The notes under the pieces are model-generated. The model searched no databases, was not told the DNA's origin, and saw only the letters and a list, made by a program, of their open reading frames with translations. DNA of 64,000 nt from a bacterium. GTDB taxonomy: Bacteria > Patescibacteriota > Patescibacteriia > UBA9934 > GWF2-40-263. A program made the translations under genes and the position numbers. Positions 13,610 through 41,634 of this stretch are shown here, one piece after another. How positions within the stretch are numbered: position 1 is the stretch's first letter; each line of letters begins with the position of its first letter. Location of the stretch: NCBI GenBank assembly GCA_021789915.1, contig JAJYIV010000002.1:613-64612 (forward strand), given 5' to 3'.

Positions 13610-13722
13610 GAGACCCCTGAAAAACCGATGGGTGTTCGTTGTCCGCCGGAGGCGGATCCGGCTCTGCCGGAAATGGACTGCGGAACCCGCGAGACGAACA
13701 GGCGCGATTTTGCAGAGGTCTC
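13610..13722. ncRNA. Candidate structured RNA or MITE-like nested-hairpin element, copy X
   Basis: It fills the whole gap between two minus-strand genes. Closing stem GAGACCCCTG/CAGAGGTCTC. Homologous to 24253-24411 with compensatory changes. Confidence 0.35.
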
Positions 13723-22484: not shown

Positions 22485-22652
22485 GACATCTGCGTGTTCG
22501 CCGGTCTTCCCGCCTTCTGTACATCCGAGAAGGACGGCATGGTCGTCACCCTCCCCTACCCGTTAGCGAACGGTCGGGAGAATTCTGTCAGCTTCCGACT
22601 CCGCGGGAAGACAACGGTCCTCGCCGCGCCGCACATCGTCTACGTCCACTGA
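22485..22652 (+). pseudogene. 3' fragment of a paralog of the 24824..25207 gene
   Basis: DICVFAGLPAFCTSEKDG..APHIVYVH aligns with KACVFGGLPAICETSKRG..APHIIYVP. No N-terminal part or start is present. Confidence 0.45.
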
Positions 22653-22706: not shown

Positions 22707-22749
22707 GATCTTTTTTGTAAACCAAACCCCGCCAGGTTTCTTTTTTGCC

Positions 22750-24252: not shown

Positions 24253-24411
24253 GAGACCTCTGAAAAACTGATGGATTTTCGTTGTCAGCCAAAGGCTGAT
24301 CAGCCTCTGGCTGAAATGGGCTGCCGAGCCCCGCGAACCCTACTGAAACGTAGGGAGAGCGGGGTCGGCGGGCGCCCATGAAACGAAAAGACGCCGTTTT
24401 GCAGAGGTCTC
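24253..24411. ncRNA. Candidate structured RNA or MITE-like nested-hairpin element, copy Y
   Basis: Perfect closing stem GAGACCTCTG/CAGAGGTCTC. Same hairpin order as copy X, with an extra ~45-nt insertion. Confidence 0.35.
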
Positions 24412-24420
24412 GATTCTTTG

Positions 24421-24452
24421 CAAACCAAACCCCGCCTGGCCTGCAGGCGGGG
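24421..24452 (-). terminator. Terminator of the tRNA-like RNA
   Basis: On the minus strand: CCCCGCCTGCAGGCCAGGCGGGG followed by TTTGGTTTG. Confidence 0.65.
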
Positions 24453-24469
24453 CGGTTGGTCCCGGGTCG

Positions 24470-24545
24470 TGGTGGACCTGATGGGAGTCGAACCCACATC
24501 TTATGGTGCTAACTCAGGCGAGGTTACCGTTTCCTCCACAGGCCC
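24470..24545 (-). ncRNA. tRNA-like RNA (tRNA-Ala-like, degenerate anticodon stem)
   Basis: GGGCCTG-TG-GAGG-AAACGGTAA-CCTC..GTGGG-TTCGACT-CCCAT-CAGGTCC-ACCA. G3:U70 is present. The anticodon arm CCTGA/GTTAGCA/CCATA does not pair. Confidence 0.5.
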
Positions 24546-24654
24546 CTATCCCTTCCCCGGGTCATTGGATAACGAAAAATCCCTCAGGCCCTTTCGGACC
24601 ATGGGGGATTCTTCTAGCACCAGGAGCAAGCCGTATGCTCACCTGAGTGACTCA

Positions 24655-24683
24655 AGTAAAACAGATATTTCCGTATTTGTCAA
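24655..24683 (-). promoter_or_regulatory. Sigma70-like promoter of the tRNA-like RNA
   Basis: On the minus strand: TTGACA-17 nt-TTTACT, about 105 nt upstream of the tRNA-like 5' end. Confidence 0.5.
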
Positions 24684-24823
24684 TCGTCGCGTGTGGACAA
24701 AATGGCGGGCGGAGGTTGACAAATGACTGGGAAGGGGCCATGTTTATGCGTCCCACGCTCGGCGTTCGGGACGAACAAGCCACCTTCCGGCCCTGCGGGG
24801 GCCTCACACAGAAGGAGAAAGCC

Positions 24824-25207
24824 GTGATCCACAGAATCGTGATTGGAACAGTCGTCGCCGTCGGTGTTCTCTACCTCGCAAAGCCCATCGTCGGGTACTT
24901 CCACGAACAGGACGTGAAGGTACGCGCCGAGACCGACGTCGTGTGCGCGCACGTGACCCCGGCCAACTGGGGCGGCGAGGACAGCGCAACCTGCCGTAAG
25001 CTCGTGGCCAAGTTCATCAACATCGACCTCAAGCCGAAGGCCTGCGTCTTCGGCGGACTCCCGGCCATTTGCGAGACGTCGAAGAGGGGCACCGATGTCG
25101 CCGTGTTCCTCAAACGAAAAGACGGGCCGCTCCAGTACAGCCTGCTGCCCATCATGACCAAGGAACAGCTGGCGAACTCGGCGCCGCACATCATCTACGT
25201 CCCCTGA
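24824..25207 (+). CDS. Small membrane-anchored or secreted protein (127 aa)
   Basis: GTG start 7 nt after AAGGAG. N-terminal TM segment IVIGTVVAVGVLYL. Four Cys residues. Confidence 0.6.
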   Translation: MIHRIVIGTVVAVGVLYLAKPIVGYFHEQDVKVRAETDVVCAHVTPANWGGEDSATCRKLVAKFINIDLKPKACVFGGLPAICETSKRGTDVAVFLKRKDGPLQYSLLPIMTKEQLANSAPHIIYVP

Positions 25208-40470: not shown

Positions 40471-41595
40471 TCAGGAGACGAGGGGACGCGCGATCGCGGC
40501 GGCGAGCGCTTCCATCCCCTGCCCCGTCGCCGCGGACACCGGCGCCACGGCCGCGAAGGCCCCCGCGTCGAACGCCGGGCCAAGGCGTCGCCGCCAATCG
40601 GCGCCGGCGGCGTCGATCTTGTTCACCGCGAGCACGCGCGGCGTTTCCGCGGCGCCCAAGCGCTTCAGGATCTCGTCCACCACGCGCAGATGGTCCGCCG
40701 CATGCGCGTCGGCGGCATCCACGACCTGCACGAGCACGTCGGCGTCCGCCGCCTCCGAGAGCGTCGATGCGAACGCGTTCAAGAGCTCGGGCGGCAGATT
40801 TTGGATGAAGCCGATCGTGTCGGAGACGAGCACCTGGCGCGGCGGCTCGTTCTCTTTCCTTGCGACGTACAGCGAGCCAACGCGCGTGTCGAGCGTGGCG
40901 AAGAGCTCGTCGGCCGCATACTCGCGCCGGCGCGTGAGCCGGTTCAGCAGCGACGTCTTGCCGGCGTTCGTGTAGCCGACGAGCGCCGCCGTGGGCAGGC
41001 CCTGCCGCCGACGCCGTTCCTGGCGCGCGCGACGCATCGTCTGATACCGCGCGAGCTTCTCCCCGACCGCTTCGGCGCGCTCGCGCAGGTGCCGGCGCAT
41101 GATCTCCGTGTTCGTCTCGCCCTTGCCGCGCGTACCGGTGCCGCCGCCCTGGCGCGACAATTCCAGGCCCATGCCGTAGATGCGCGGGCCCATGTGCCGG
41201 ATGCCGGCCAACTCGATCTCCAGCCGCGCCTCCGTCGTGCGCGCGTGCTTGGCGAAGATCTTCAAGATGAGATCGAGGCGGTCCCACACCTGGAGGCCGG
41301 CCGGGCGCAGCGCTTCCGAGAGAAGATAGACTTGCCGCGGCTTGAGCCGGTCGTTGATGACCACGAGCGCCGCCCCGAGCCGCTTCCCTTCCTCGGCCAG
41401 CTGCTCGATCTTTCCCGTACCGAGGAATGTCGCCGGATGCGGCGCCGCGCGGCGCTGATGCGTCTTCACGACGACGATGCCGCCGTACGTGCGCACGAGT
41501 TCTTCCAATTCCTGCAGCCGATCCAAACTCTCCGCCTTCGTGAGCCGCGGCGGGATCAGATCGACGAGAATGGTTTTGAGGAGACGGTCGGCCAT
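40471..41595 (-). CDS. hflX: GTPase HflX
   Basis: HflX N-domain followed by G1 GYTNAGKTSL and G3 DTIGF. Confidence 0.9.
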   Translation of the reverse strand: MADRLLKTILVDLIPPRLTKAESLDRLQELEELVRTYGGIVVVKTHQRRAAPHPATFLGTGKIEQLAEEGKRLGAALVVINDRLKPRQVYLLSEALRPAGLQVWDRLDLILKIFAKHARTTEARLEIELAGIRHMGPRIYGMGLELSRQGGGTGTRGKGETNTEIMRRHLRERAEAVGEKLARYQTMRRARQERRRRQGLPTAALVGYTNAGKTSLLNRLTRRREYAADELFATLDTRVGSLYVARKENEPPRQVLVSDTIGFIQNLPPELLNAFASTLSEAADADVLVQVVDAADAHAADHLRVVDEILKRLGAAETPRVLAVNKIDAAGADWRRRLGPAFDAGAFAAVAPVSAATGQGMEALAAAIARPLVS

Positions 41596-41634
41596 GCGGA
41601 GACAGCGTTTCAAAAAGATTGACGGGCGTCAAAC

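Follow-up and report, generated by a model that had tools for sequence, protein, structure and literature searches.

The described RNAs that come closest to the sequence reported here are bacterial tRNA-Ala (Rfam RF00005), tRNA pseudogenes and relics at integration hot spots, the tRNA-like domain of tmRNA (RF00023), and the YrlA or Y RNA-like RNAs (RF02553), which are likewise bacterial RNAs with a tRNA-mimicking module. Our sequence is a 76-nt tRNA-like element on the minus strand of a 64,000-nt stretch of DNA (hereafter the window) from a GC-rich genome (about 65% GC) that its protein homologs assign to the Patescibacteria (CPR). The coordinates of the element and of the features around it are collected in Table 1.

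Comparison with known families

The element has an acceptor stem identical to that of tRNA-Ala of the Patescibacteria type, which is distinguished by a short AAACGGUA D-loop, and it shares with these tRNAs the type of T-arm, the encoded CCA end, a similar D-loop and a 4-nt variable loop of the AGAU type. However, its anticodon stem is unpaired, its anticodon loop is shifted by 1 nt, and it presents AGC or UAG instead of the U/G/C-GC of tRNA-Ala. Compared with the genuine tRNAs encoded in the window, it scores 20–30 bits lower in the tRNA model and has a long leader and a weak putative promoter.

Like tRNA pseudogenes and relics at integration hot spots, the element is lineage-specific and non-decoding, and it lies in a repeat-bounded insert together with ORFans and a phage-type gene. 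In contrast to such relics, it spans the full length of a tRNA, with three of its arms perfect, and is not a 3′ fragment, and we found neither a duplicated tRNA 3′ end in the window nor an integrase among the proteins scanned. With the tRNA-like domain of tmRNA it has in common an alanine acceptor stem with G3:U70, a T-arm and an ACCA end, and neither RNA has a working anticodon arm. However, the element is only 76 nt long, lacks an mRNA-like reading frame and pseudoknots, and has a true 4-bp D-arm. The tmRNA models accordingly gave scores of 29.8 bits (RF00023) and 13.9 bits (the permuted form, RF04321) against a gathering score of 47 in each case, with the ends alone being aligned, and ARAGORN predicted no tmRNA. 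The architecture of the element is not permuted as in YrlA, the YrlA model (RF02553) gave no match at E ≤ 10, and no Ro or RtcB protein was found among the window proteins scanned. The element is best filed as a tRNA-Ala-derived pseudogene or a tRNA-like relic.

As an observation on the YrlA family itself, two YrlA genes in other genomes (L084, 2632-2767, and L102, 2721-2856) have a T-arm followed by CAGGUCCACCA, the same as in the tRNA-like element. Their tRNA-like module thus copies the 3′ strand of an alanine-type acceptor.

Table 1 Features at the tRNA-like locus (window coordinates).
Feature	Position	Strand	Description	Evidence
tRNA-Ala-like gene	24470..24545	-		ARAGORN tRNA-Ala(agc); Rfam RF00005, 39.8 bits; tmRNA model matches the tRNA-like ends only
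Putative promoter	24655..24683	-	TTGACA-17-TTTACT	Sequence; not called by the consensus scan
Leader segment	24623..24648	-	20 of 26 positions complementary to tRNA-like positions 9-34	Local alignment to the reverse complement
Leader hairpin	24574..24614	-	GAAGAAUCCCCCAUGGUCC-GAAA-GGGCCUGAGGGAUUUUUC; terminator-like shape	MFE and centroid folds
Intrinsic terminator	24429..24453	-	10-bp stem with 8 GC pairs, then UUUGGUUUG; directly after the CCA end	Terminator scan
8-nt direct repeat GACCCGGG, upstream copy	24556..24563	-		Shuffles
8-nt direct repeat GACCCGGG, downstream copy	24461..24468	-	1 nt past the CCA end	
26-nt direct repeat, copy 1	24414..24439	-	Covers the 3′ half of the terminator and the U-tract	
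26-nt direct repeat, copy 2	22711..22736	-	Just past the stop codon of the Nuc_deoxyri_tr2 gene	

Intact parts of the tRNA-like sequence

Written as RNA, the first part of the element reads GGGCCUG-UG-GAGG-AAACGGUAA-CCUC-G-CCUGA-GUUAGCA-CCAUA, and the rest reads AGAU-GUGGG-UUCGACU-CCCAU-CAGGUCC-A-CCA. All seven pairs of the acceptor stem (GGGCCUG/CAGGUCC) can form, including G3:U70, and the discriminator base is A73. The stem of the D-arm (GAGG-AAACGGUAA-CCUC) has four of four pairs and that of the T-arm (GUGGG-UUCGACU-CCCAU) five of five, with the CCA end encoded downstream. The sequence and its alignment to the Rfam model also contain the nucleotides expected for tertiary contacts, namely U8, A14, G18, G19, A21, the T-loop UUCGA and A15:U48 (R15:Y48). 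As read from the primary sequence, the identity set of alanyl-tRNA synthetase (AlaRS) is complete (G3:U70, A73, G1:C72 and G2:C71). The initial annotation of this DNA had described a tRNA-like sequence of 76 nt that has an acceptor stem of 7 bp with G3:U70, U8, a D-arm with GG, a canonical T-arm and an encoded ACCA end, and every one of these features was recovered. In its acceptor stem, its D- and T-arms and its CCA end, the sequence is that of a genuine tRNA-Ala.

Both ARAGORN and Rfam recognise the element as a tRNA. Its score against the Rfam tRNA model is above the gathering score of 29, with E = 6.5e-5 over the whole window, and a likeness of this size is more than chance. The genuine tRNAs of the window (Gln, Gly and Lys) score 60.4–69.1 bits with the same model and have zero or one non-standard pair. 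A contig of a separate assembly (L129) is identical over the tRNA-like stretch; the broken arm described below is therefore not an assembly artefact. A further ARAGORN prediction in the window, a 94-nt tRNA-Ala(ggc) at 40523-40616 (-), falls in an ORF for an HflX-type GTPase (40471-41613), has no Rfam support and was discarded as a false positive.

Anticodon arm and predicted fold

The anticodon arm (CCUGA-GUUAGCA-CCAUA) forms two of its five pairs in the Rfam register. The Rfam alignment contains three non-pairs, all of them in the anticodon stem, and the 16 pairs of the other stems are intact. If three broken pairs were distributed randomly among the 21 stem pairs, the probability that all would fall in the 5-pair anticodon stem is 0.0075. 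ARAGORN uses a register shifted by 1 nt, in which the loop is UUAGCAC, the anticodon AGC and the stem has three pairs, and it places this anticodon at the unusual position 36. In the standard register the loop GUUAGCA reads UAG, and AGC appears only after the shift of 1 nt; the U/G/C-G-C anticodon by which tRNA-Ala decodes was thus not found. Nor does the sequence form a four-stem cloverleaf with a 5-bp anticodon stem, having two of five such pairs according to Rfam or three interrupted pairs according to ARAGORN. In bacteria, A34 is normally limited to tRNA-Arg(ACG).

The initial annotation had already stated that the anticodon arm cannot pair as such and that a shift of 1 nt gives the loop TTAGCAC with anticodon AGC and three of five stem pairs, and the two programs agree with it on both points. 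It had also allowed that tRNA finders might call a normal tRNA once the hand-drawn fold was corrected. The element passes as a tRNA, above threshold and without a pseudogene flag, but its anticodon stem stays broken in both registers. Because no anticodon stem can form, the RNA would be unable to act as an adaptor. ViennaRNA predicted for the 76-mer alone a rod-like fold of −27.8 kcal/mol against −20.4 kcal/mol for the cloverleaf, the rod being favoured by about 7 kcal/mol, whereas the three real tRNAs of the window were predicted to fold as cloverleaves or nearly so.

Promoter, leader and terminator

The putative promoter upstream of the element is weak, since its -10 hexamer (TTTACT) has no A at position 2. 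It had been described as a good sigma70-type promoter, a view that its missing key A and its absence from the consensus scan do not support. The called promoters of the real tRNA-Gln and tRNA-Gly genes of the window end 15–22 nt upstream of the gene, whereas the leader of the tRNA-like gene would be about 103 nt long. The terminator noticed earlier behind the tRNA-like part was found again by the terminator scan, with its stem and U-tract.

The leader contains the GNRA hairpin that had been reported there. This hairpin includes GGGCCUG, which was previously read as part of a second copy of the tRNA 5′ half. However, the shared sequence amounts to GGGCCTG.GG only. When the leader was aligned directly to the tRNA, the top local score was 16, which is no better than noise (14.5 ± 2.1 for shuffled sequences) and was matched by 128 of 500 shuffles. 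The hairpin was also considered as a permuted or YrlA-like module and rejected, since the 5′ strand of a T-arm is missing from it and none of the models matched.

The previously noted complementarity between GGTGCTA in the leader and TAGCACC in the tRNA-like part is present in the sequence. A longer segment of the leader is complementary to window positions 24537-24512, which comprise the D-arm and the 5′ strand of the anticodon arm. The score of this alignment (22) was reached by 6 of 500 shuffles, so that the complementarity is marginally non-random. In the predicted MFE fold of the whole 226-nt transcript (z = −3.2), the leader is paired in this way.

Genomic context

The tRNA-like gene lies in a non-coding stretch of about 600 nt between two genes of unknown function. 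One encodes a 266-aa ORFan, for which a protein search of 5.8 billion sequences returned only itself, and the other a membrane-anchored ORFan of 155 aa (24740-25207, +). Both genes belong to an insert of about 3.7 kb that separates FtsX (25605) from PyrG (21864) in the window and that contains, besides the two ORFans and the tRNA-like gene, a structured repeat element, a Nuc_deoxyri_tr2 gene, a decayed paralogue fragment of the 155-aa gene, and ribosomal protein L9. In the two closest relatives, whose PyrG proteins are 82% and 79% identical to that of the window, FtsX is followed by PyrG with a gap of 50 nt in one and two small ORFs in the other, and the FtsX-PyrG locus of neither contains a tRNA or tRNA-like sequence. 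The regions downstream of FtsX homologs at about 70% identity are not syntenic. The Nuc_deoxyri_tr2 gene is of phage type (phrog_30579, E = 2e-47) and its family is common in viral contigs; 76 viral loci with 46–57% identity were found, none of them with a linked Ala-like tRNA.

Two sets of direct repeats surround the element. The 26-nt repeat, CC[A/T]GGCGGGGTTTGGTTT[G/A]CAAA[G/A]AA, is identical at 23 of 26 positions between its copies, which bracket 1.7 kb comprising the structured repeat element, the 266-aa ORFan and the Nuc_deoxyri_tr2 gene. This pair, beside the terminator of the tRNA-like gene, resembles what an insertion or a duplication would leave behind. The copies of the 8-nt repeat GACCCGGG bracket the tRNA-like sequence together with 10 nt of the leader, and a repeat of this length occurred in 20 of 5000 shuffles. 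As GACCCGGG contains the palindrome CCCGGG, its copies can also pair with each other, and they form a helix between leader and trailer in the centroid fold. The pair could thus be either a scar resembling a target site duplication or a leader-trailer helix.

On the other side of the insert, positions 22491-22646 (+) hold the decayed C-terminal paralogue fragment of the 155-aa ORFan (36% identity over 53 aa), which adds to the signs that this region has undergone duplication and rearrangement. The structured repeat element is present in two intergenic copies (24253-24411 and 13610-13722) that have inverted repeats GAGACCYCTGMAAAA at their termini. Folding of the long copy gave z = −8.9. In the short copy one inner branch is missing, and by eye some of the changes in the inner hairpin from one copy to the other seem compensatory. 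The element had no match in Rfam. Other assemblies of the same organism break inside the long copy, one contig ending at 24330 (L001) and another starting at 24357 (L129). The repeat may be a MITE/REP-like element or an undescribed small RNA.

The housekeeping genes of the window include NrdD, FtsEX, MurG, FtsW, MraY, PyrG, ribosomal protein L9 and a MacB-type ABC transporter, along with 6PGD/G6PD, a sigma factor, HflX and sugar-nucleotide enzymes. Searches of the three proteins neighbouring the element against Pfam, PADLOC and PHROGs revealed no tRNA-related or defence function, with only Nuc_deoxyri_tr2 being phage-like, and 30 further window proteins searched against Pfam were ordinary CPR housekeeping proteins. 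No Fem/MprF-type transferase, AlaRS, Ro (Rsr) or RtcB was found among 39 Pfam-scanned window proteins or in the precomputed annotations, and no integrase among the window proteins scanned, which are a subset of the ORFs.

Search for relatives

The scans of genome, metagenome and viral collections used exact patterns, by which diverged homologs may have been missed. The acceptor stem and T-arm of the element are generic: among the matches listed for the T-arm and acceptor 3′ end in the genome scan were canonical tRNA-Ala genes of many phyla, including Patescibacteria (L004, L024, L060, L061 and L091), as well as the 3′ ends of tmRNA and YrlA genes and att-type 3′ fragments. A pattern anchored in the D-arm gave only tRNA-Leu genes among the matches listed from metagenome and viral contigs. 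With the 3′ end as the pattern, the matches listed from viral contigs were for the most part 3′ ends of the tmRNA type, and none was a tRNA-like sequence in which an arm is broken. BLAST against phages and plasmids gave either generic matches of the T-arm and 3′ end to Microbacterium phages or nothing. No homolog was found among the matches listed in the genome, metagenome and viral scans or at the syntenic loci of the relatives, and no described counterpart was found in the literature. The tRNA-Ala of a Woesebacteria genome (L004) has the same AAACGGUA type of D-loop and a variable loop of the AGAU type, and by this resemblance the element looks derived from a CPR-type tRNA-Ala.

A separate oddity came from the Patescibacteria MAG H52-bin047_1 (L069, 1675-1764, +). 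It encodes a 90-nt tRNA with the same Ala-type acceptor stem (G3:U70, A73) and T-stem as the element, a long variable arm and the anticodon UCU (Arg), which scores 44 bits with the Rfam tRNA model and is called tRNA-Arg(tct) by ARAGORN. Judging from these features, it could be a tRNA with a mismatch between identity and anticodon that inserts alanine at AGA codons, or another aberrant alanine acceptor.

Origin of the element

With a probability of about 0.5, we are dealing with a copy of a CPR-type tRNA-Ala gene that was disabled and that lies in a recombination-scarred insert. We arrive at this reading because the element is not conserved, because its setting is inserted and bounded by repeats, and because the region upstream appears to have been replaced and has no close-in promoter. 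The confinement of the damage to one arm argues against slow and even decay, and suggests that either one local event took place or selection acted on the top half. A single local event may have destroyed the 17-nt anticodon arm. Candidates are recombination or the replacement of a patch: two tRNA-Ala genes with shared acceptor stems and different anticodon stems might, for instance, have crossed over in the anticodon loop, or a 3′ half borne by a mobile element may have been acquired. The same history of rearrangement could have exchanged the normal close-in promoter for an unrelated upstream region of about 100 nt. If the locus is transcribed, by read-through or from the weak TTGACA/TTTACT promoter, the top half with G3:U70 and A73 would allow processing by RNase P and perhaps charging by AlaRS, and the product would be inert in decoding. 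The retention of a strong dedicated terminator does not fit well with a disabled copy, and the intactness of the other 16 stem pairs and of the conserved positions is what selection on a top-half mimic would predict as well. Neither a donor sequence, nor a displaced 3′ half, nor a reciprocal product of the proposed event was found.

It is possible, though unlikely, that the element is instead a functional, non-decoding mimic of a tRNA, whose intact acceptor/T minihelix and D-arm elbow would be processed by RNase P and charged by AlaRS (for which G3:U70 and A73 would suffice), and which would be used away from the ribosome in alanylated or uncharged form. Such an RNA could supply alanine when the cell wall or lipids are aminoacylated, serve as a decoy that draws off tRNA-targeting enzymes, or be a regulator or sensor. 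It might belong to a wider, so far unrecognised set of aberrant alanine-acceptor tRNAs in Patescibacteria, which could include the likewise aberrant L069 tRNA, whose acceptor stem and T-stem are the same. The possibility is kept alive by the striking confinement of the damage to the anticodon arm (p ~0.0075), with the tertiary nucleotides spared; the alanine identity set, the strong terminator of its own and the good alignment of its tRNA-like ends to the tmRNA model also agree with it. However, no conservation was seen among the matches listed in any scan, the nearest relatives lack the element at the syntenic site, the promoter is weak, and the predicted fold prefers a non-cloverleaf rod. 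The proteins scanned in the window also include no partner of the expected kinds (Fem/MprF-type transferase, AlaRS, Ro/RtcB), and the neighbours have no defence match in PADLOC. A relic of an attachment site, which is unlikely too and slightly less probable than the mimic, would be a hybrid formed when an integrative element brought the 3′ part of a foreign tRNA-Ala, starting in the anticodon loop, into the tRNA-Ala gene of the host. This would explain why the sole broken stem is the one that spans both halves. Other genomes, among them L025, L030 and L088, commonly contain tRNA-Ala 3′ fragments whose first part is the anticodon loop, Microbacterium phages carry the same tRNA-Ala 3′ end in unannotated stretches that lie close to one end of their genome records, as would be consistent with attachment sites, and a phage-type gene lies 3′ of the element within the segment bounded by the 26-nt repeats. 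However, the longest match to a displaced tRNA 3′ half in the 64-kb window is 11 nt, the scanned proteins include no integrase, the 26-nt repeat lies over the terminator and not over the tRNA, and the 8-nt repeat is in the flanks. Moreover, a simple crossover leaves A34 and the shifted loop unexplained.

It is improbable that the element is part of a larger structured small RNA, in which the leader of about 100 nt would pair with the D-arm and the 5′ strand of the anticodon arm to form a rod and the likeness to tRNA would reflect ancestry only. The complementarity of the leader (20/26; 6/500 shuffles), its use in the predicted fold of the transcript, and the match of GGUGCUA in the leader to UAGCACC in the tRNA-like part are all in line with such a rod. 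However, significance is only marginal once several looks at the data are allowed for, pairing of both complementary segments would create a crossing pseudoknot, the hairpin of the leader with its U-run may end transcription before the tRNA-like part is reached, and the RNA is known from one sequence alone. Least probable is a functioning tRNA-Ala(AGC) of the ordinary kind in which an irregular anticodon stem is tolerated. The ARAGORN call without a pseudogene flag, a canonical 7-nt loop (UUAGCAC) with U33 and A37, and the Rfam score above the gathering threshold speak for it. Its three stem pairs, however, are interrupted by an A-A mismatch and require a 3-nt junction and a shortened variable loop, A34 would be atypical for bacteria, the score falls 20–30 bits short of those of the genuine tRNAs in the window, and the promoter geometry is atypical.

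The initial annotation had offered a decayed tRNA-Ala, a tRNA-mimic regulatory or decoy RNA, and a recombination (att) relic as explanations. Of these, the derivation from tRNA-Ala and the inability to decode hold, and the genomic context favours a decayed gene or relic; the mimic gained no positive evidence. The att relic is not supported in its classical form, for which a tRNA 3′ duplicate longer than 11 nt in the 64 kb or an integrase among the scanned proteins was looked for and not found.

Significance of the element

The tRNA-like observation is real but most probably ordinary. If the element is a relic, it matters mainly for annotation. As ARAGORN calls it tRNA-Ala(agc) and its Rfam score is above threshold, annotation pipelines would list, among the alanine tRNAs of a CPR genome, a gene that does not function and whose anticodon has a eukaryote-like A34. 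A relic would also point to a hot spot of recombination in a genome of very small size. What residual interest there is lies in the clean contrast between the top and bottom halves of the molecule and in its possible charging by AlaRS. Should the RNA prove to be expressed and charged, AlaRS would have in it a natural substrate of a rare kind, uncoupled from decoding, and the case would bear on the origin of tmRNA-like and other tRNA mimics from tRNA-Ala.
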